From the NCBI GenBank assembly GCA_030704665.1, contig JAUYID010000009.1:729702-793701 (forward strand): 64,000 nucleotides of DNA, read 5' to 3'. The notes under the pieces are model-generated. The model saw nothing but the letters and a program-made list of their open reading frames with translations, ran no database searches and was not told where the DNA came from. A program made the translations under genes and the position numbers. Below are positions 3,090-27,740 of this stretch, piece after piece; the first letter of the stretch is position 1; the number at the start of each line of letters is the position of its first letter. This DNA is from a bacterium (GTDB taxonomy: Bacteria > Patescibacteriota > Microgenomatia > Woykebacterales > RBG-16-39-9b).

Positions 3090-3500
3090 TTGATTGGGGG
3101 TGAAAAAAACTTGGAAGCACGTATTCTTAGAGCTGGTTTGGGAGCAGCGGTCTTTGGACTTCTGGTCAGTGGCGCTCTCGGAACTTCCGGTGGTTGGTCA
3201 CCAGTTCTTTCTCTGACCAACAATGTCCTCGGAGTTTGGATCATCGCCATAGTCCTGAGTATCTTCTTTGCCTATATCTTCACTTACTGGTTTGACGCTT
3301 TTTTGCCAGGAAGTGCGGTAGTAAGGGGAGCCATCTTTGGAGCTTTAATTTGGGTTCTTCTCCTGGTCCTTGGAGGAGTCTCGAACTTTTTCAAAGAGGC
3401 TGTTTATCCAGACCCAGCCGGAGCTAGTCTTTTCCTTAGTCTAGTTCTTCACTTGGCTTGGGGCTCGGTTTTATCTCTTCTTTACCAAAGTAAAGGTTAG
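3090..3500 (+). CDS. small hypothetical membrane protein
   Basis: 136 aa. TTG start in the track. Multiple hydrophobic helices. Confidence 0.35.
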   Translation: MIGGEKNLEARILRAGLGAAVFGLLVSGALGTSGGWSPVLSLTNNVLGVWIIAIVLSIFFAYIFTYWFDAFLPGSAVVRGAIFGALIWVLLLVLGGVSNFFKEAVYPDPAGASLFLSLVLHLAWGSVLSLLYQSKG

Positions 3501-4372
3501 GGTAGAACTGAAAGTGGGTTGATGTTTTGTCCGGACTGCGAAACCTCAAAGTGAAGATGTGGTCCTGTTGCCCAACCGCTAACACCAACCCAACCAATGA
3601 CAGTCTTGGCTTTGACTATTTGCCCAACTACAACGTTGGTGGAGCTCAGGTGAGCATACAGTGATTCAAAACCGTTGTGTTTGATGATCACATGATTGCC
3701 AAAACCACCATTGAAGTGATTCACTGAGCTCACCACCCCCTCCATAAAGGGGTGAATCGGTGTTCCATAACTAGCCGCAATATCTATCCCTGAGTGGGAA
3801 GAGGAAAAATAGGTGGTGATATAGCCTCTTGCGGGCCAGTGAAGAGATCTCGAAAGACCTTCTGGCAGACTCACTACGCCAGAAGAAAAGGAGGTGTTCG
3901 TGGGCGGCTTTATATTAGAAGCCTTTATTTCCGCTTCTGTCTCCACTTTGCTAACCAGAGTAGACGTTTGTGTTTCGACCACTTGAGGCGGGTAACTAGT
4001 CGAAGCCGCGTTGGTGTTGGGTGCAAAAAACAAAGTCGCCGGCGAAAGTAGGGAAATTGACAGTAAAACTACCCCAAGTGCCGAAAGCAAGGAAGGTACA
4101 AAGAACATTCTCGGAGAAAAATAGCTTGAAGTTTTGCTTGGAAAGTAAGGTCTCAATTTTTTGCTGGTAAGCAAATTTAGTTTAAAGTATTTGACCAATT
4201 CTGAGATTAGGTAGGGGAACAATTTCTTATCAATACCGAAAAACTTACTCTTTCGAGCTTGGTGAAAATCATGGAAGTAAACTACTTCCCTTGGTTTTAT
4301 TTCTTGGACTTGCGGACCTCTGGGGGCTTTTCCCCACAGAAATCCATTGTCCAAATAGTGTATTGAACTCAT
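3497..4372 (-). CDS. M23/LytM family metallopeptidase; the true start is probably internal, at MFFVPSLL near 4108
   Basis: Canonical-order M23 motifs GIDIAASYGTPIHP...HNGFESLYAHL...GWVGVSGWATGPHLHFEV. The signal-peptide-like segment begins at aa approx 88 of the longest ORF. Confidence 0.75.
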   Translation of the reverse strand: MSSIHYLDNGFLWGKAPRGPQVQEIKPREVVYFHDFHQARKSKFFGIDKKLFPYLISELVKYFKLNLLTSKKLRPYFPSKTSSYFSPRMFFVPSLLSALGVVLLSISLLSPATLFFAPNTNAASTSYPPQVVETQTSTLVSKVETEAEIKASNIKPPTNTSFSSGVVSLPEGLSRSLHWPARGYITTYFSSSHSGIDIAASYGTPIHPFMEGVVSSVNHFNGGFGNHVIIKHNGFESLYAHLSSTNVVVGQIVKAKTVIGWVGVSGWATGPHLHFEVSQSGQNINPLSVLP

Positions 4373-4479: not shown

Positions 4480-5565
4480 TTGAGTATGGAAGAGTACAAA
4501 CAAAAAATAAAGCAGCTCACTAAACGGCTAGACAGTCTAATTTCGGGAGCGGTTTTGGCTGAAAAAAGAAAAGAAATTCTCTCTTTGGAAGCAAACACTC
4601 TCAAAAGTGATTTCTGGTCGGATACTCTCTCTGCCCAAGAAACGATGCGGCAACTGTCTGATTTAAAAACTGAGGTTGCTGACTTCGAAGATTTGAAAGA
4701 GACACTGACAACCTTGTCAGAACTAGCAGATTTGGAAACTTCAAATCAGGAAGAAACAATCGATTTCGAATCTGAAATTGAAAAGGTAGGAAAAAAACTA
4801 GACAAAATCGAAAGTCTTTCCTTTTTGTCTGGTCCCTATGACAAAGCAGACGCTCTTCTTTCAATCCATTCCGGTCAAGGCGGTACTGAGGCGATGGATT
4901 GGGCCGCTATGCTGCTGCGGATGTATCTGCGCTTTGCTGAAAGAAAGAGCTGGTCAAGCCATCTTATCGAAGAAACCAAAGGTGAGGAAGCCGGAATAAA
5001 ATCGGCAACGATTGAAATAAAAGGCAAACAAGCTTACGGTCTTTTGAAAAATGAAGCTGGAACTCACCGTTTAGTTCGGCAATCCCCTTTTAATGCTGAC
5101 GCCCTTCGCCAAACCTCTTTTACCCTTGTCGAAGTTTTACCTGTCATTGAACAAGCAGAAAAAACTTTACTTAATCCAGAGGAAATTGAAATGGAGGCTT
5201 TTCGCTCTTCTGGTCCGGGCGGGCAAAATGTTCAAAAGGTAAACACCGCCGTCAGACTACGTCACAAACCAACTGGTCTTGTCATCACAGCTCAATCGGA
5301 AAGAAGTCAGCTCCAAAACAAGGAAAATGCTCTTAAGCTCCTCACTGCCAAACTTTACGCTCTTGAAGAAGAAAAACGGGCCAAAGAGGAAAGACAGCTC
5401 AAAGGTCAGTTCAAAGTCGCAGGCTGGGGCAATCAAATTCGTTCTTATGTCCTTCACCCCTACAAACAAGTGAAAGATTTGCGTACTGGACTCGTCTCAA
5501 CTGACCCAAACCAAGTCCTGGACGGTCATTTGGAGCCGTTTATTGAGGCTGAATTGAGGCTCTAA
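4480..5565 (+). CDS. prfB: peptide chain release factor 2
   Basis: GGQ motif (SGPGGQNVQKVNTAVRL) and the RF2-specific SPF tripeptide (RQSPFNAD). The ORF is continuous, with no programmed +1 frameshift. Confidence 0.9.
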   Translation: MSMEEYKQKIKQLTKRLDSLISGAVLAEKRKEILSLEANTLKSDFWSDTLSAQETMRQLSDLKTEVADFEDLKETLTTLSELADLETSNQEETIDFESEIEKVGKKLDKIESLSFLSGPYDKADALLSIHSGQGGTEAMDWAAMLLRMYLRFAERKSWSSHLIEETKGEEAGIKSATIEIKGKQAYGLLKNEAGTHRLVRQSPFNADALRQTSFTLVEVLPVIEQAEKTLLNPEEIEMEAFRSSGPGGQNVQKVNTAVRLRHKPTGLVITAQSERSQLQNKENALKLLTAKLYALEEEKRAKEERQLKGQFKVAGWGNQIRSYVLHPYKQVKDLRTGLVSTDPNQVLDGHLEPFIEAELRL

Positions 5566-5633: not shown

Positions 5634-6332
5634 ATGATTGTCTTCGATGAAGTCTCCAAGCAATATAATCTAACCAATGCCCTCTCGGATATAAATTTGG
5701 AAATTGAGGACGGAGAGTTCGTTTTTTTGATTGGTCCTTCCGGAGCAGGAAAATCTACTCTGCTCAAACTTTTGATTCGCGAAGAACTTCCTACTCAAGG
5801 ACAAATATTCGTTGGCGAATCCGAAATAACCTCCCTACCATCGAACCGCGTTCCTCATCTTCGTCGGGTCGTGGGAACAATTTTTCAAGATTTTAAACTT
5901 CTACCCCAAAGAACTGTTTTTGAAAATGTCGCCTTTCCTTTGGAAATAATCGGTCTTGCCGACGAAGAGGTCTCTCGTACTAGTCATGAGGCTCTTAAAC
6001 TAGTCAATTTGGCTAGCAAAGCCGAGCACTTTCCTTGGCAACTTTCCGGTGGTGAACAACAACGCACTGCTATTGCCCGCTCAATGGTCCAGAGACCTGA
6101 AGTACTTCTTGCTGATGAACCAACCGGCAACCTTGATCCTCAAAGTGCCTGGGAAGTGATGCAACTCCTCGCCAAGCTCAACAAACTAGGAACTACTATT
6201 GTCATGGCTACTCACAATCTTGATATTACGAGCAGTCTCCCGCACCGGATGCTTGAAATCCGTGAAGGCAAAATCGCCCGCGACACCAAACCGAAAAAGG
6301 AATCGAAAGAAACCAAGGAGGAGAAAAAATGA
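5634..6332 (+). CDS. ftsE: cell division ATP-binding protein FtsE
   Basis: Walker [13 protein letters not shown] signature LSGGEQQR and Walker [12 protein letters not shown]. Lies immediately upstream of ftsX. Confidence 0.9.
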
Positions 6333-7210
6333 AAACTTTACAACGACTCTTTTCAACTACTTTTAAGAGAATAACGCGCAACCCCTACAATGCTGCGGGA
6401 GCCATAGCCGTCATGTTTCTCACTTTTTTGGTGGGCGGAAGCTTTGTCTTGATTAGCTTTGGCTCCAACAAAATTTTAAGTTACTATGAATCTAGACCTC
6501 AAGTAATTGCTTTTTTGAAAGATGACACTACTGATACCCAAGTTGAAGAAATTAAGGAAAGTTTAAACTCCACCGGAAAGGTATCTTCGGTAAATTACGT
6601 TTCCAAAGAAGCAGCGCTAGAAATTTATAAAAGCAGAAACAAATCTCAGCCAGAACTGACCGAATTTGTTACTGCTGATATTTTACCCTCTTCTTTGGAG
6701 ATCTCCACCAAAAACATTGAGGATCAAGATGAAGTCGCCAAAGCAGTTGCCGCCGAGCCTCAAGTTGAAGAAGTAGCTTTTCTGAAAGAATTGATCGACA
6801 ATCTTACTAAATGGACAAAAGCGATCCGTTTGGTCGGTATGAGCTCGATTGTTTTCTTGATGCTAACTTCTATTTTTGTCACTCTAGTGGTCATCGGACT
6901 GAATATTTCTCTCCACAAAGAAGAAATTGAGATCATGAAACTGGTCGGAGCAACTGAACGTTACATACGCACTCCTTTCCTCTTTGAAGGAGCTCTTTAT
7001 GGTTTGGTATCAGCTCTTTTATCTACTTTGGCGACCATTGGAGCAATGGTTTGGCTGAGTCCCTTTGTTTCGCGCTATCTGGGAGAGTTTTCTCTTGTTC
7101 CTGTTCCTTGGACCAACTACGCCTATCTCTTGGCAGCTGAGGCAGGGGTAGGAATCTTTGTTGGAACTCTTGGCTCCTACATTGCGACGAGAAAATACTT
7201 AAAAGTTTAG
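6329..7210 (+). CDS. ftsX: cell division permease FtsX
   Basis: 293 aa. Topology is TM1, then a large extracytoplasmic loop, then three C-terminal TM helices. Overlaps the ftsE stop (ATGA). Confidence 0.85.
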   Translation: MKTLQRLFSTTFKRITRNPYNAAGAIAVMFLTFLVGGSFVLISFGSNKILSYYESRPQVIAFLKDDTTDTQVEEIKESLNSTGKVSSVNYVSKEAALEIYKSRNKSQPELTEFVTADILPSSLEISTKNIEDQDEVAKAVAAEPQVEEVAFLKELIDNLTKWTKAIRLVGMSSIVFLMLTSIFVTLVVIGLNISLHKEEIEIMKLVGATERYIRTPFLFEGALYGLVSALLSTLATIGAMVWLSPFVSRYLGEFSLVPVPWTNYAYLLAAEAGVGIFVGTLGSYIATRKYLKV

Positions 7211-7216
7211 ATCCTT

Positions 7217-8356
7217 ATGAAAAAAAGATTGTTCTTTCTGACAATCATCTCCCTTTTTATTCTCGGCCCCTGGATACAGGTACCCCTTTCTGCGGCCAGT
7301 CTTCCTCAAAACTCGGGTGGTTTGCTCGAGGACCTAAACAGTAATTTAAAAAGACAGGAACAGCTCAAGAAAAATATTAGTAACGCTCAAAATCAGGAAC
7401 GCAGTCTAGCCAACCAAATTTCTTATGCTAACAACCAAATTGAGCTAACCAACCTTCAAATCGAGGAAACTAACGATCGCCTCGATCTCTTGGCGGACAA
7501 AATTAAGAAGACCAAAAAGAAGCTGGCAAACGCGGTCAAAGACTACAACCACATGAACGATGTGGCTGACAGCCGAATCAGAAAGATTTACAAGGAAGGC
7601 TTCTCCGGACCACTTGATAATCTTCTAACTAGCGACAACGTCAACTATTTTCTCATCCGACAAAAGTATGCCGACGCCGTTCATCAATCAGACGTTAACT
7701 TGATGAACAACCTCAAAAAAGTACGTGACGGCATCAGTCAAGACAAAAAAGATCTGGACAAGCAAAAGTCTGACACCGAAAAGCTGAAAACCCAACTTGT
7801 TTCCCAGGAAAATTCTTTGTCGGATCAAAAATCCCAAAAGTCTTATCTGCTGAGAGTCACGAAAAACAACGAAATCACCTACCAAAGTCTGCTCGCTCAA
7901 GCCAAGGCTGAACAAGCTCAAATTCTGGTCGCTTTGGGTGGTGGCGGAGTCATCATTGGGGACGTCACCCGCGGTCAGATCATCGCCTTTCAAGGCAACT
8001 CAGGGTGTTCTAGTGGGTCCCACCTACACTTCGAATACCGTATTAATGGAAGAGCAGTTGATCCACTGCCTTATCTAAGAAGCGGTCAATTAGGTCAACC
8101 AGAAAGAGGTTACCAGATTAACCAATACTTTGGACAAAATGCAAACTGGGCCATCTATGGACCTGGAGGGCATCCAGCTATTGATATTAGCTCCGGATCT
8201 AATTCTCCAGTTTATGCGGCCAAAGCCGGCCAAGCTAGACTGATAGTTGATAGAAACAGTTACGGCTGCCCAGGAGCCTGGTGGCACCCACCGGCACGTG
8301 GGATTGTCATTGACCACTCAGACGGAAGCAAAACCCTATATTGGCACATTCGTTAG
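7217..8356 (+). CDS. EnvC-like coiled-coil murein hydrolase activator / M23 peptidase with a permuted LytM domain
   Basis: Signal peptide, then an approx 200-aa coiled coil rich in Q/K/L heptads. C-terminal LytM motifs are present but in swapped order: [24 protein letters not shown] precedes HPAIDI...[10 protein letters not shown]...LYWHI. Confidence 0.7.
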
Positions 8357-8394: not shown

Positions 8395-8423
8395 TTGACA
8401 ACAAGTAAATAGTATGCTATAGT
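8395..8423 (+). promoter_or_regulatory. sigma70-like promoter for the transposase (TTGACA, 17-nt spacer, TATAGT)
   Basis: TTGACA at 8395-8400, spacer 8401-8417, TATAGT at 8418-8423. GAGG follows, then ATG at 8431. Confidence 0.5.
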
Positions 8424-9330
8424 GAGGCTAATGAACACTAAGTTTAGCCTCAGACAATTTAAGAGAAAATATGGTACGCACGAACAATGCTTGGAAGCTA
8501 TTAAGAAGCTACGTTTCGCAGATGAAATGGATTGTCCAAAATGCAAAAGGCTTTCAGTTTTCTACAAAGTTTCAGACCGAACCGCTTATGCCTGTAAGTT
8601 CTGTGGCTACCAAATTTACCCATTAGCAGGAACTATTTTTGAGAAAACTACTACGCCACTTGATATGTGGTTCTTTGCAATGTACTTAATGGTACAAACC
8701 CGTTCTGGTTGTTCTGCTAAACAACTGGAAAGAATGCTCGAAGTTACTTACAAGACTGCTTGGAGAATGTTTAAGCAGATTAGAGCCTTAATGGCTGACA
8801 ATTCAGGTGAGCCGTTAGACGGAATTATTGAAATTGACGAAACCTTTGTGGGTGGTAAAGCAAAGAACAGGGCAAGAAAGTGGATACAGGGCGTTGAGGG
8901 CGAGGAAAAAGAGGTTGTTATGGGTATGGTGCAAAGAGAGGGTAAAATCTATCTCAAGCACGTTCCAAATACTGGCAAGTACACTTTGCTTCGCCAAATC
9001 AAAGACCACGTTAGCCCTAAAGCTACCATTTACACTGACCAGTACGGCTCGTACAAACAACTTAACCGCTTGGGCTACAACCACTCTTGGGTAAACCACA
9101 AAAAGACTTTCGTTTATGGTGACGTTTACACTCAAAATATCGAGAACTTTTGGTCTCACCTAAAGCGTGGAATTACTGGCGTGTACCGAGTGGTAAGCAA
9201 GAAGTACCTGCAAAGCTACGTTGATGAGTTTGGTTTCCGTTATTCTAACAGAAATGTAGGCGGCGGAATGTTTGATCTACTTTTGGCACAGGTTGCAGAG
9301 GTTAAGGTTTTGAAGATTTCTGAGGAGTAG
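8422..9330 (+). CDS. IS1595-family (ISXO2-like) DDE transposase; the likely true start is ATG 8431
   Basis: N-terminal zinc ribbon (CPKCKR...CKFCGY) followed by the MWFFAMYLM...QLERML helix and GIIEIDETFVGGK, typical of the IS1595/ISXO2-like transposase family. Confidence 0.8.
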   Translation: MRLMNTKFSLRQFKRKYGTHEQCLEAIKKLRFADEMDCPKCKRLSVFYKVSDRTAYACKFCGYQIYPLAGTIFEKTTTPLDMWFFAMYLMVQTRSGCSAKQLERMLEVTYKTAWRMFKQIRALMADNSGEPLDGIIEIDETFVGGKAKNRARKWIQGVEGEEKEVVMGMVQREGKIYLKHVPNTGKYTLLRQIKDHVSPKATIYTDQYGSYKQLNRLGYNHSWVNHKKTFVYGDVYTQNIENFWSHLKRGITGVYRVVSKKYLQSYVDEFGFRYSNRNVGGGMFDLLLAQVAEVKVLKISEE

Positions 9331-9448: not shown

Positions 9449-10021
9449 TCACTTAGGTGTCTGAATAGCAGAGGATGTGGCGGTGTTAATAAGGTAATTT
9501 CCCTTTGAATAAAAATTATTGAAATTTATACCGAAAAATATCAACCCAATAATTAAGAGTGTTAGCACTATATAAATAACTATTGAGCCCGCATTTTTAC
9601 CAGTTCTAAGAACAACGTGTAGAAGTAGAACAAAAAATGTAAGTAAACCAGCGGAAATTAAGGTTAAAGAAACAGCCGCTGAAAAAACAGTAACCTGCTT
9701 AAATAAAGAGAACTCTATAGATATAAAAGTGAAAAGGGCAACGAACAAACCCAACGTCTCTATAAGTTGTGTTCTATTCTCATCGAGTTTATCTTCCACT
9801 TTCTTTACTCTATCTTCCTGGCTGTTAAACTCCTTTAATATATCATTTTGTTTATCACTAAGAGTTTTTACTTCATTCTGAAGGGTTTTGGAAAATTCAT
9901 TTAGTGCTTCAATTTGGGGATAAGTTTCTACAATTTCTGGACTACCCGTAGTTGGGATTTTACTGCTTTCAGGCTTTGTTGTTTCTGGTATCGGTTCTGA
10001 TGGTTTTGGCATTTTAATCAA
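9449..10021 (-). CDS. hypothetical protein: N-terminal P/E/T-rich plus coiled-coil region, C-terminal 3-4 TM helices
   Basis: 190 aa. Contains coiled-coil heptads in the region QIEALNEFSKTLQNEVKTLSDKQNDILKEF, followed by hydrophobic helices. Sits in a strongly AT-rich region. Confidence 0.5.
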   Translation of the reverse strand: MIKMPKPSEPIPETTKPESSKIPTTGSPEIVETYPQIEALNEFSKTLQNEVKTLSDKQNDILKEFNSQEDRVKKVEDKLDENRTQLIETLGLFVALFTFISIEFSLFKQVTVFSAAVSLTLISAGLLTFFVLLLHVVLRTGKNAGSIVIYIVLTLLIIGLIFFGINFNNFYSKGNYLINTATSSAIQTPK

Positions 10022-10769
10022 AAATACTTGAATACATGTCTTTTTTATCTAATTTATTATCAGCTTCTTGTATAAACGTCTTAATTTTTTCGGAATCCCA
10101 ATTCATATCTTTGTCCTGCCGAGTATTTATATCTTTCATCAACATTATTACTTTTCCCTTATTACCCACATTTTTTATTCCATCGCCGATAGTAACAACT
10201 TGATTGCAATCAATATTATTCAATGTTAAATTGAATGTTAGATTGAAGAGGAAAGTTCTTAAATTCTCTGTAAGCCTTTCTTTAAAAACAGTTTCTGAGA
10301 TATCCTTGGTAGGGTTTTGGGAAAGAAAGAATATCTCCTTTATATACCCAACCCTTTTCATTTTGTTCTGGGAAGGACTATGATGAAATATAATGTCAGA
10401 GAGTTTCCCGACTAAATCTTGAATTTTATCTAATGGAAGTGAAAAGGAAGATATTTCCGTTTGATTAATCCACTGAATGTTTATTTTGTCAAAACTCAAA
10501 TTGCACGCAACTGAATTATCTTTGGATCTAAGTAAAAGCCTTGGTATTTCACGAGGGGCAGTGCTTGGAATTGGTAAAATAATGTTATTTCCATCAGAAA
10601 ATACATCAACCCCATCCCTTATCTCTTCTAACAGGATATTTAAATCAGAAATATAAAAATCTTTTGGGAAAAGAGCTACCTCGTATTTATTTATAACTAA
10701 ATTTCGTTCAGCCATAAGTGGAACGAATTTTATCAAACTTTTAATGAATTTACTAGTCCTTGTTCTCAT
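10014..10769 (-). CDS. hypothetical cytoplasmic protein (no recognisable domain), translationally coupled to the downstream TM protein
   Basis: 251 aa. Overlaps the next gene by 8 nt. AT-rich, with N/K/I-rich composition atypical of the window. Confidence 0.5.
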   Translation of the reverse strand: MRTRTSKFIKSLIKFVPLMAERNLVINKYEVALFPKDFYISDLNILLEEIRDGVDVFSDGNNIILPIPSTAPREIPRLLLRSKDNSVACNLSFDKINIQWINQTEISSFSLPLDKIQDLVGKLSDIIFHHSPSQNKMKRVGYIKEIFFLSQNPTKDISETVFKERLTENLRTFLFNLTFNLTLNNIDCNQVVTIGDGIKNVGNKGKVIMLMKDINTRQDKDMNWDSEKIKTFIQEADNKLDKKDMYSSIFD

Positions 10770-10828: not shown

Positions 10829-11995
10829 GTGTCCAAAAAACTGCTCAGTTTTTTCTTTTCAACAATTTTGGTTTTTGCTTTCTCGAAGCAAGCCTTGGCT
10901 AGTTCCTTGCCTGCTCCTACCGTTCCAGACACAGTAAAAGCGACTGAAAATTTTACAGTAAGTTTCAGCCTTAGTCTTGATCCAAATTACAACTACTATG
11001 CAAAGGTAAGACTTGGTACCGAGACAAGCAATCTTAAATATGGGCAAACTTACAACTCAGCATCAGATCAATGGTTAACTGATTCAGATGCTTGGACTTC
11101 TTTTCCAGTTTTTACAACAAACTCTGCTGGTACTTTGTCCGCTAGTTTAACAGCCAAAACTTCAAGTAACGTTGTCCTAGGATCAAATTTAATTCGGATA
11201 GCCGTGAGAAGAACTGACACAAAAACTACTCTTCAGAGCGAAACGGCTAATATCAATGTCGAGGCGGCACCTCCAAACCAAGATTCCGACTCGGATGGTA
11301 ATACTGGCTCAACCGACCCAACTCCAAAGCTTAACTTAAAGCTAGCCTTGTCAGAATTTATGCCCAATCCGGAAACAGGGGAGAAAGAATGGGTCGAAAT
11401 TCGCAATTTGGCCAGCTCTAGCGCTGATCTTTACGGTTGGAAAATTGACGATGGTCCCGCCGGTTCTTCGCCACTGACGCTTGAGGAAAACTCAACTATC
11501 GCCGGCTTTGGCTATAAAGTTTTTTATTTACCTTCGAAGCTAAACAATTCCGGGGACAGCCTTCGTCTCCTCAAACCTGACGGCTCAGAAGCTGACGTGG
11601 TAAATTTCGGGGAAACAACCAAGGGGGTTTCTTTTGCCAAAGGCTCTTCCGGTATCTGGCAACAAACCCTGACCCCGACTCCGGCAGCAGCGAACATTAT
11701 CAACACCGGGGAAGTCCTTGGCTCTACGGATACCAGTAAGTCTTCTCTGACGGAAAATCCCAAAAGCGACAACTATTCACTTGATGTTCTTACCCCTCTG
11801 GAAGCAACTGCCTCAAGCCACTCCGGAAAGCAAGCTAGTCCGGTCAAAAATCTTTTTGCTTCTGAATCCCCAAAGGGTTTCTTTTGGATCTTGGTCGTGA
11901 TTGGAGGTTTTTTGCTAGTAACTTCTTTAACTATTTTTGGGATCAAATCAGGATTTTTCCGAAAAATCTTTTCTAAAAACGCGAAGAGCAGTTGA
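10829..11995 (+). CDS. secreted lamin-tail-domain (LTD) protein with C-terminal TM anchor
   Basis: Signal peptide. LTD signature LSEFMPNPETGEKEWVEIRNLASSSADLYGWKIDDG...GDSLRLLKPDGSEADVV. C-terminal hydrophobic helix plus a basic tail. Confidence 0.65.
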   Translation: MSKKLLSFFFSTILVFAFSKQALASSLPAPTVPDTVKATENFTVSFSLSLDPNYNYYAKVRLGTETSNLKYGQTYNSASDQWLTDSDAWTSFPVFTTNSAGTLSASLTAKTSSNVVLGSNLIRIAVRRTDTKTTLQSETANINVEAAPPNQDSDSDGNTGSTDPTPKLNLKLALSEFMPNPETGEKEWVEIRNLASSSADLYGWKIDDGPAGSSPLTLEENSTIAGFGYKVFYLPSKLNNSGDSLRLLKPDGSEADVVNFGETTKGVSFAKGSSGIWQQTLTPTPAAANIINTGEVLGSTDTSKSSLTENPKSDNYSLDVLTPLEATASSHSGKQASPVKNLFASESPKGFFWILVVIGGFLLVTSLTIFGIKSGFFRKIFSKNAKSS

Positions 11996-12036: not shown

Positions 12037-12954
12037 CTACTTATCTCCCGGTATGTAGCAGGTACCAACACTCCCGTCCTCATAGACCAAGCAGACCTTG
12101 ATGAGGCGGGCGGCGTTGACAAAGTCGAGAAACTCTTCCGCGCTCGCCGGCAACTCGATTGGTGCCTCACCAACCGGGCAGACCACCCAATCGTCATTTT
12201 CATGGGGGACTCCCGCTCGAGCTTGATAAGTGCCTCCGGAGTCTTCCCCACAGAGAGAATCTGTGCTTGAGTATGAGACCTCTACGCCATCAGCCAAAAG
12301 TATTGTGGCGCTGAGACTGAAGTTGATGTCCCGGTCCGAGTCGTTGAAAACCCAACCCCGGATCACGAAAACGGGGACATTGGTAACCTCATCCCTCCAG
12401 AACTGGTTGTTGTAGGGCTTGTCCACCCGTTCGAAGCTGACTTTTCCTGCGAGCAAAGTGGCAAAGCCACCCCCTACCTCAATAGTTGCTGCCTCCTCTG
12501 CTTGTTGATCAGCCTCGGCTTGAGCCGTAGCAGCAGCATTTTTCTCTTGCTGCTCGGCTGTAGCGGTGAAGTGGATGTCACTGGCATCGACACTCCAAAT
12601 CCCTTGAGATTTGATCAGGTCAAAGATACCATCTTCTTCGACCTCTGAGGTTCCCTCTTTACGAACGGCGATCAGGTGAACCCGGTAGAGGTAATCGTCG
12701 CCAACACTGTCGTACCAACTCAGGCACTTGATCTCAAGCAGGCCGTCGACACCTTTGAGCGCTTTTTCAGCTACCTGAAGTTGCTCGTCCGTCAGCTTGA
12801 CCTCATCGTCGGCACAGATCGACAGCTTCTCCAAACCTGTACCAGCGATTCTCTGGGGAACCGACGGCTGCTCGACAAGGCGCTTACTCCCCCCACCACA
12901 AGCAGCTGCAATCAAGACCACTGAAGTGGCCAAGAAAATGAACCCTCTCATGAT
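12037..12954 (-). CDS. lipoprotein of unknown function; the start is probably MRGFIFL (12954), not the longest ORF
   Basis: Lipobox LIAAAC-GGG. Acidic A/E/Q-rich middle segment. Confidence 0.55.
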   Translation of the reverse strand: MMRGFIFLATSVVLIAAACGGGSKRLVEQPSVPQRIAGTGLEKLSICADDEVKLTDEQLQVAEKALKGVDGLLEIKCLSWYDSVGDDYLYRVHLIAVRKEGTSEVEEDGIFDLIKSQGIWSVDASDIHFTATAEQQEKNAAATAQAEADQQAEEAATIEVGGGFATLLAGKVSFERVDKPYNNQFWRDEVTNVPVFVIRGWVFNDSDRDINFSLSATILLADGVEVSYSSTDSLCGEDSGGTYQARAGVPHENDDWVVCPVGEAPIELPASAEEFLDFVNAARLIKVCLVYEDGSVGTCYIPGDK

Positions 12955-13089
12955 CCTCTCTCCCTTCCTTAAGTCGTTTTTGTGACTATTAATTATACGC
13001 CCAAAAGGCAATTTTTTCCTTATTTGGCCCCTTGAAAAGGGCTTTCAATTAGGCTAGTTTTAAGGCAAAGCCCATCAACTCAAGCTAAA

Positions 13090-27663: not shown

Positions 27664-27740
27664 GGCCCCGTCGTCTAGCGGTTCAGGACACCTGGTTCTC
27701 ATCCAGGAGATCATCGGTTCAAATCCGATCGGGGTCACCA
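27664..27740 (+). tRNA. tRNA-Glu (anticodon CUC), CCA encoded
   Basis: Acceptor stem GGCCCCG/CGGGGUC. Anticodon stem CCUGG/CCAGG with loop UUCUCAU. T-arm GGUUCAAAUCC. 3' CCA present. Confidence 0.85.

Follow-up and report, generated by a model that had tools for sequence, protein, structure and literature searches.

The window analysed here, a stretch of 64,000 nucleotides from contig JAUYID010000009.1, carries at positions 7217..8356 (+) a gene for a protein of 379 residues (plus stop) that follows ftsE and ftsX and ends in a domain of the M23 peptidase family. This domain is a genuine and strongly conserved circular permutation: the segment that normally closes an M23 domain is placed first, and the segment that normally opens it comes last and ends the protein. 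In the overall reading that we consider likely, the protein is a secreted, FtsEX-coupled septal peptidoglycan hydrolase of the Candidate Phyla Radiation (CPR)/Patescibacteria, with an M23 (LytM/lysostaphin-type) zinc endopeptidase domain whose fold is truly circularly permuted.

Of the modules found in peptidoglycan hydrolases and their regulators, M23/LytM domains (lysostaphin, LytM, EnvC, NlpD, ShyA) belong to the best studied, and they are recognised by the order of their motifs, which is HxxxD...YxH...HxH in the canonical domain. All of these motifs are present in the window protein (H319-P-A-I-D323, H269-L-H271, and Y375-W-H377), but HxH (269) stands ahead of HxxxD (319) and YxH (377). 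A preliminary description of the gene had claimed that the C-terminal third of the M23 domain precedes the N-terminal two-thirds, and had proposed an alignment to the Peptidase_M23 profile as a check. In that alignment, the Pfam profile PF01551 matches the protein with 50.7 bits (cut-off 28.7, E 2e-13) in two out-of-order stretches. The best stretch pairs residues 250–283 with profile positions 63–96, i.e., the end of the model, and the other corresponds to the N-terminal part of the profile. By comparison, the canonical M23 gene at 3497-4372 (-) in the same window is matched in one stretch (2-96/96, 96.4 bits). A crossing is also seen against solved M23 structures (phmmer, hmmsearch), where query residues 318–378 match chain positions ahead of those matched by residues 249–289; in the phmmer alignment with 9gy1_A, these two query segments fall on chain positions 41–91 and 101–142, respectively. 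Solved M23 chains found by hmmsearch with the permuted profile number 38 and include LytM, lysostaphin, ShyA, Csd3, EnvC, DipM, SpoIIQ, LasA, and phage Gp16, and the order is canonical in every alignment inspected. The split Pfam match and the crossed structure alignments thus bear out the claimed order.

The two pieces of the domain are complementary rather than two partial copies, which argues against two independent partial or degenerate domains, an alternative that the preliminary description had raised. The first piece has the HxH part only, and follows the pattern of the segment that normally ends M23 (V-x-x-G-x-V ... G-x-x-G-x-S-x-G-x-H-x-H-F-E ... D-P-x-x-Y-L). The second has the HxxxD and YxH parts, as in the segment that normally opens M23 (P-x-x-G-x-I-x-Q-x-F-G ... 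H-x-x-x-D ... I-D-H ... Y-W-H), and also the typical pre-domain motif, whose counterpart in the canonical neighbour at 3497-4372 is WPARGYITTYF. When the domain is cut in silico at the junction, and the halves are re-joined in the canonical order and rescored against PF01551, a single stretch results in six of six cases, comprising the window protein and five homologues of 30–55% identity. The stretch covers 2-96/96 of the profile in five of them, including the window protein, and 2-89/96 in the sixth. The new termini lie in the short loop that links 'YxH(L)' to the 'V-x-x-G-x-V' strand of an ordinary M23 domain, and the protein ends in ...YWHIR. Together with the invariant catalytic residues of both halves and the compact domain predicted by AlphaFold2 (AF2), both described below, the restored Pfam match upholds the circular permutation that had been claimed.

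In the window protein, the permuted domain starts directly after the second helix of a coiled coil, with a GGGG linker between that helix and the first domain strand as the new N-terminus of the fold (7937..7948; ALGGGG at residues 239–244; these and the following coordinates within the gene are on the forward strand). The canonical C-terminal third, placed first, spans residues 245–289 (7949..8083, profile positions 63–96) and contains C264 (8006-8008) and the HxH motif (codons 8021-8029), in which, by homology, H269 would be catalytic and H271 a zinc ligand. The junction GQLGQ (residues 290–294, 8084..8098), located in the family alignment, leads from the canonical C-terminus to the canonical N-terminus. 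The canonical N-terminal two-thirds, placed last, follow as residues 295–379 (8099..8353; motifs GHPAIDI...IVIDH...TLYWHIR), with H319 and D323 of HxxxD (8171-8185), C351 in an enlarged loop (8267-8269), and the catalytic H377 (8345-8347) two residues ahead of the stop. The protein has only two cysteines, both specific to the family: C264 lies five residues ahead of HxH, and C351 precedes the 'IDH' strand. The protein segments quoted in the preliminary description are all found, at residues 260–283, 319–340, and 363–378, and only R379 and the stop come after the last of them.

The permuted order is not particular to this sequence, and its recurrence, set out below, goes far past what chance would give. 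A search for homologues gave 43 further protein clusters with 30–57% identity and about 90–100% coverage, and in the resulting alignments of 44 sequences HxH precedes HxxxD in 44/44; canonical-order orthologues, also considered in the preliminary description, are thus not found in this set. Pfam M23 matches all 44. Precomputed domain matches on homologues carried the flags 'weak' or 'faint'. H269, H271, H319, D323, H377, and C264 are each invariant in 44/44. The second cysteine is invariant in family alignment A2, and is found in all 86 related loci about 28–36 residues after HxxxD. The junction of about five residues is strictly kept in length in most members. The next five homologue matches (21–26% identity, plus one partial) are coiled-coil M23 proteins with the canonical order.

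On a wider scale, a profile of the permuted domain was compared with 1.84 billion cluster representatives (50% identity clusters). About 64 of the top 150 representatives have a single-stretch, full-length match to this profile, and these are mostly proteins of 370–420 residues with the domain at the extreme C-terminus. Among the GTDB species representatives, scanned with the pattern CS[TS]G[TSP]H[LV]HF, at least 426 relatives are confirmed, and the best 80 of these are all permuted, with essentially the whole permuted domain covered. Their record titles name Saccharimonadales/Saccharibacteria, Woykebacteria, Curtissbacteria, Daviesbacteria, Levybacteria, WWE3, and 'Patescibacteria group'. In all 86 related loci, the open reading frame (ORF) ends two (rarely three or four) residues past the last catalytic histidine, and all five catalytic residues are present. 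The invariant catalytic residues and the strictly kept C-terminus point to purifying selection.

These data also decide whether the order could be an artefact (a misassembly, a frameshift, or a chimeric MAG contig), or the gene what remains of a tandem M23 gene in decay. The window does come from a metagenome-assembled genome (MAG), and an IS1595 transposase lies directly downstream of the gene, but the same order recurs in 44 independent protein clusters, with identities as low as 30%, in at least 64 of the clusters formed at 50% identity, and in 80 of the 80 best GTDB loci, which originate from many studies. Nor do the catalytic residues vary, and the position of the C-terminus is strictly kept. 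An assembly artefact is ruled out by this conservation, and the probability that we assign to the whole group of such explanations is negligible.

Some relatives depart from the common pattern. Dozens of records titled 'uncultured Gammaproteobacteria/Pseudomonadales bacterium' (binchicken co-assembly MAGs; e.g., L010, L012, L023, and L026) have a CPR-type locus of ftsE, ftsX, and permuted M23, as have some records titled 'Candidatus Nanoarchaeia archaeon', and these titles are probably wrong. The permuted domain occurs without the coiled coil in P0051, which has a Pro-rich N-terminus, in P0060, which has a transmembrane anchor, and in a 219-codon ORF in L018. P0060 and P0127 are membrane-anchored proteins in which a low-complexity linker leads to the permuted M23 domain, again with no coiled coil. 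P0127 has lost both of its zinc motifs (N-L-T stands in place of HxH, and HxxxD is absent), which makes it a degenerate 'LytM factor' on the permuted topology. Permuted forms that lack the cysteines (P0134, P0152, and P0198 (Candidatus Howlettbacteria), and loci L170 and L171) have a GYGN/GFGH loop of canonical length, end in ...YGHLQ or ...YAHLQ, and may be early-branching permutants. In a search for permutants outside the CPR, the P0152 domain as query gave only one close relative at full coverage, P0198 from Candidatus Howlettbacteria, and the remaining matches were canonical M23 domains with partial coverage. A viral permutant was not found among 80 IMG/VR loci, nearly all of which match the HxH part only; three loci with near-full-coverage matches (L092, L131, and L148) were rejected as candidates on account of their canonical-order M23 domains.

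AF2 with the family alignment predicts one compact β domain for the permuted segment, with a mean predicted local distance difference test (pLDDT) score of 84.5 and a predicted template modelling (pTM) score of 0.81. The strands of this model correspond to those listed for M23, taken in the permuted sequence. Over residues 272–301, which run from the canonical C-terminal helix through the junction into the canonical first strand, the pLDDT is 95–97 (10-residue block averages). In the BFVD database, the domain model has three confident partial matches (probability 1.00, TMq 0.52–0.54) to internal virion proteins of cyanophages; we infer that these proteins carry M23, because the related solved Gp16 is an M23 protein.

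Since neither half of the domain alone can form the zinc site, some complementation is needed, and this could also be provided between molecules. The C-part of one molecule would then complete the N-part of another in a domain-swapped dimer or oligomer, and activity would depend on oligomerisation at FtsEX. PcsB offers a parallel in that it crystallises as an intertwined, self-inhibited dimer (PMC11627006). The AF2 monomer, on the other hand, is compact, with the high pTM and pLDDT values over the short junction given above, and a junction of some five residues that is strictly length-conserved in most members is what one would expect of an intramolecular turn. Solved complexes contain one EnvC per FtsX dimer (PMC11627006), which also speaks against the swap, and we regard it as very unlikely. 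A single-chain permuted domain is the reading that we retain.

The assignment to FtsEX is based on gene order and on the predicted fold of the N-terminal half. The order in the window is prfB (4480-5565), ftsE, ftsX, and the permuted-M23 gene. The triplet opens with ftsE (5634..6332, +), which encodes the ABC ATPase (Pfam ABC_tran, E 1e-35), followed by ftsX (6329..7210, +), with the FtsX_ECD (E 1e-18) and FtsX permease (E 8e-13) domains; the permuted-M23 gene starts 7 nt past the end of ftsX. Of the 76 GTDB loci with enough upstream DNA, 72 have ftsX directly before the gene, the median gap being 13 nt, and an FtsE homologue is found upstream in most of the 86 related loci. The order ftsE-ftsX-gene also holds in five of five metagenomic homologue loci, one of which, at a contig edge, has only the 3′ end of ftsX. 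In locus L088 of another bacterium, the same slot after ftsE-ftsX is taken by P0047, a canonical-order protein with CC_PcsB and M23 domains, so that the permutant seems to have replaced, in its own lineages, an ordinary M23 protein linked to FtsEX.

The N-terminal half of the protein has the layout of an FtsX-binding partner. Residues 1–27 (...VPLSAAS; 7217..7297) form a hydrophobic, signal-peptide-like segment that is presumably cleaved; the full-length AF2 model has a helix at residues 3–16 and low pLDDT at 18–34. An antiparallel helical hairpin follows (7322..7936), with helices at residues 36–127 and 142–240 and a short tip helix at 132–138, and is presumed to be the FtsX-binding coiled coil. 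The hairpin helices have pLDDT values of 80–96; helix 2 extends to residue 240, and the domain opens with a strand that begins at 245. In a Foldseek search, the top PDB match of the full-length model is 8tzl_E, which is EnvC in the FtsE/FtsX/EnvC complex of V. cholerae (E 1.3e-4). Other matches are 6tpi_A (EnvC with the FtsX periplasmic domain), 6ewy (RipA N-terminal domain), and 8idc_E (RipC in FtsEX of M. tuberculosis). Pfam CC_PcsB matches 19 of the 44 family members at E<=0.01. The proposal in the preliminary description that the protein is an FtsEX partner agrees with all of this: ftsX lies 7 nt upstream, the order is kept in 72/76 loci, EnvC is the top match of the full-length model, and CC_PcsB is found in 19/44.

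The known FtsEX partners fall into two classes: EnvC only activates amidases, while PcsB, CwlO, and RipC are themselves autoinhibited hydrolases (PMC11627006). In EnvC, the zinc ligands of the LytM domain are replaced by W320, V324, and Y401 (PMC11627006), and amidases are activated only once the restraining-arm helix leaves the groove (PMC11627006, PMC7668044). Because all five catalytic residues are invariant, the sequences indicate that the window protein is probably an active hydrolase rather than an amidase activator of the EnvC type. The competing view is that of a catalytically silent 'LytM factor' (as EnvC, NlpD, and DipM), whose groove would bind and activate another hydrolase, e.g., an amidase. 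In its favour, EnvC, the best-studied FtsEX partner with a LytM domain, acts as an activator (PMC11627006, PMC7668044) and is the top PDB match of the full-length model, and a degenerate permuted domain that has lost HxH and HxxxD does exist in the wider family (P0127). EnvC, however, lacks the zinc ligands (PMC11627006), whereas here the five catalytic residues are invariant in 44/44 homologues and present in 86/86 loci, and no separate restraining-arm helix is predicted by AF2 in the full-length model between helix 2 and the M23 domain. We therefore consider a silent factor unlikely.

If the protein is an active hydrolase, a mechanism can be outlined. The secreted protein would dock with its helical hairpin on the extracellular domains of FtsX, as suggested by synteny and fold, and the two segments of the M23 domain would pack together and rebuild the zinc site (H319, D323, and H271) with the catalytic residues H269 and H377. 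The protein itself would then cut peptidoglycan cross-links, following the logic of PcsB, CwlO, and RipC. With the permutation, the tether to the coiled coil is no longer at the canonical N-terminus but in the loop that, in ordinary M23 domains, follows the catalytic histidine of 'YxH'. With the tether relocated and the C-terminus only 2–4 residues past that histidine, the end of helix 2 and the free C-terminus should adjoin the active-site groove. From this topology, ATP-driven motion of FtsEX, relayed through the hairpin and helix 2, could control the access to the active site, or its geometry, through the junction.

In a stronger form of this idea, the permutation is an adaptation that makes the M23 domain directly force-gated. 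It would be switched at the active site, with no need for a restraining-arm helix, as displacement of the helix would shift the first β-strand relative to the terminal strand that bears the histidine, and a Cys264–Cys351 bond would staple the groove loops. A C264–C351 disulfide between these two loops, both of which have low pLDDT, would be plausible. The adaptive, force-gated scheme as a whole is in our view rather unlikely. If true, it would add a new way in which mechanical force is passed on from a type VII ABC system to a hydrolase.

Several points weaken the reading of the protein as an FtsEX-coupled, permuted M23 hydrolase. The Cys-bearing loops are predicted with low confidence (pLDDT 66–79 in the domain model, and <50 at residues 348–356 in the full-length model). 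No M23 structure is among the PDB matches found by Foldseek for the domain model. One possible cause is the 3Di alphabet, in which the sign of the sequence separation is encoded, so that a permutant would lose its prefilter matches; another is that the model is locally wrong. The window protein itself reaches no CC_PcsB score. Finally, the gating idea is an argument from topology only.

The permutant probably arose once and then became fixed across much of the CPR. The probable route is a tandem duplication of M23, after which the N-part of the first copy and the C-part of the second were lost. Half of the top representative matches to the permuted profile consist of three hidden Markov model (HMM) stretches, of which the best spans profile positions 18–145. 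These were rejected as longer permuted proteins; they are tandem canonical M23 domains, two to four per protein, with very short linkers between them. In the tandem proteins P0074, P0084, P0088, P0107, P0065, and P0068, the junction of C-part, short linker, and N-part has the same length as in the permuted domain. P0065 and P0068 resemble membrane proteins of the BlaR1/M56 type, followed by 3–4 copies of M23. Such a tandem architecture is what the classical route to a circular permutant, duplication and then truncation, calls for, the ancestry of these particular proteins being a separate matter. The Cys-less permuted forms, with their loop of canonical length, suggest that the permutation predates the cysteine pair and the loop insertion.

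As for the surroundings of the gene, the canonical M23 gene adjoining prfB has no coiled coil, and such a gene is found both in the window (3497-4372, -) and in the related locus L001 (1223-1858, -); canonical and permuted M23 domains thus coexist within the same genomes. Directly downstream of the permuted-M23 gene, an IS1595/ISXO2-like transposase is encoded at 8422-9330 (+) (DDE_Tnp_IS1595, E 3.5e-38), followed by two reverse-strand ORFs with no Pfam match (9449-10021 and 10014-10769) and a gene for an LTD-domain protein (10829-11995). Because the LTD gene and TsaE directly follow the M23 gene in L001 and L003, the segment 8422-10769 looks like a local insertion. Further downstream, the ORF at 12037-13011 (-) encodes 324 residues with no Pfam match and a lipoprotein-like N-terminus (...LIAAACGGG). 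It lies in a stretch with a G+C (GC) content of about 50%, compared with about 41% for the window, and this stretch may be foreign DNA. Other GC-rich blocks are located at 16–18 kb and 32–34 kb of the window. The only RNA gene found by Rfam and ARAGORN in the 64 kb is tRNA-Glu(CTC) at 27664-27740 (+).

In several large CPR lineages, the permutant is predicted to act as the standard division hydrolase linked to FtsEX. These lineages include the Saccharibacteria, some of which are cultivable epibionts; genetic tools are available for Southlakia epibionticum and related TM7 strains. The permutant constitutes a natural experiment on how regulation depends on where the catalytic domain is attached to the FtsEX-driven coiled coil, and, as there are tandem M23 genes that share its junction, it would make a clean case for permutation by duplication. 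It also has consequences for annotation. In Pfam-based pipelines the domain appears split and weakly scoring, and the 'third' at its N-terminus might be mistaken for a fragment; an identical (100%) MAG protein in NCBI (P0001) is labelled merely 'peptidoglycan DD-metalloendopeptidase family protein'. The domain may further serve as a lineage marker, and as a target for studying division in ultrasmall bacteria. Overall, the interest for fold evolution, FtsEX mechanotransduction, and annotation is moderate, and the known logic of the system is unchanged.

A permuted M23 or LytM domain is not reported in the full-text literature searched, where permutation among peptidoglycan hydrolases is discussed for NlpC/P60 only, and a search on FtsEX in Patescibacteria gave nothing specific. 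The permuted M23 domain appears to be undescribed so far. NCBIfam has no specific model for it; the best matches are partial ones to Pgp3 and EnvC, far under the cut-offs, and the EnvC equivalog NF008644 gives 39.6 bits against a cut-off of 270, over the HxH segment only. Precedent for a natural permutation of a peptidoglycan-hydrolase fold comes from the circularly permuted NlpC/P60 families (YaeF/poxvirus G6R, LRAT-like), in which, according to a passage in PMC6403190 that cites Anantharaman and Aravind 2003, the order of the catalytic residues is swapped. The fold and the catalytic type are different in that case (papain-like, Cys/His). The tandem M23 proteins (P0074, P0084, P0088, and P0107, and P0065 and P0068 with 3–4 copies) are closer in fold, and their junction aligns over positions 18–145 of the permuted profile in one HMM stretch, but they have complete canonical domains on both sides, i.e., three HMM stretches, and no coiled coil.

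EnvC of E. coli and V. cholerae (6TPI, 8TZL, and 4BH5) shares with the window protein the role of FtsEX partner, the signal peptide, the antiparallel coiled-coil hairpin, and the C-terminal M23/LytM domain. It differs in the canonical order, the degenerate site, and the restraining arm, whereas the window protein is permuted, has the five catalytic residues, and has no predicted arm. Canonical coiled-coil M23 proteins (P0045, P0046, P0047, and P0048) are similar in size (378–417 residues), are 21–26% identical in the coiled coil over about 90–100% of the query, and have intact M23 motifs, and P0047 shares with the permuted gene the slot after ftsE-ftsX. They have the usual HxxxD...YxH...HxH order in one Pfam stretch (119.9 bits), with neither the two family cysteines nor the enlarged loop, and are tethered at the other chain end.

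The functional logic would be that of PcsB (CHAP), CwlO, and RipC (NlpC/P60), in which an FtsX-binding hairpin is combined with an autoinhibited catalytic domain that is freed by the ATPase cycle (PMC11627006). The catalytic domains of those proteins are cysteine peptidases of the CHAP and NlpC/P60 types, in contrast to the zinc-dependent M23 domain here, and the linker in RipC is long and Pro-rich, where the window protein has four glycines. Judged by its sequence, the window protein would belong with the self-acting FtsEX hydrolases, with the difference that its effector would be a zinc endopeptidase of the M23 family.

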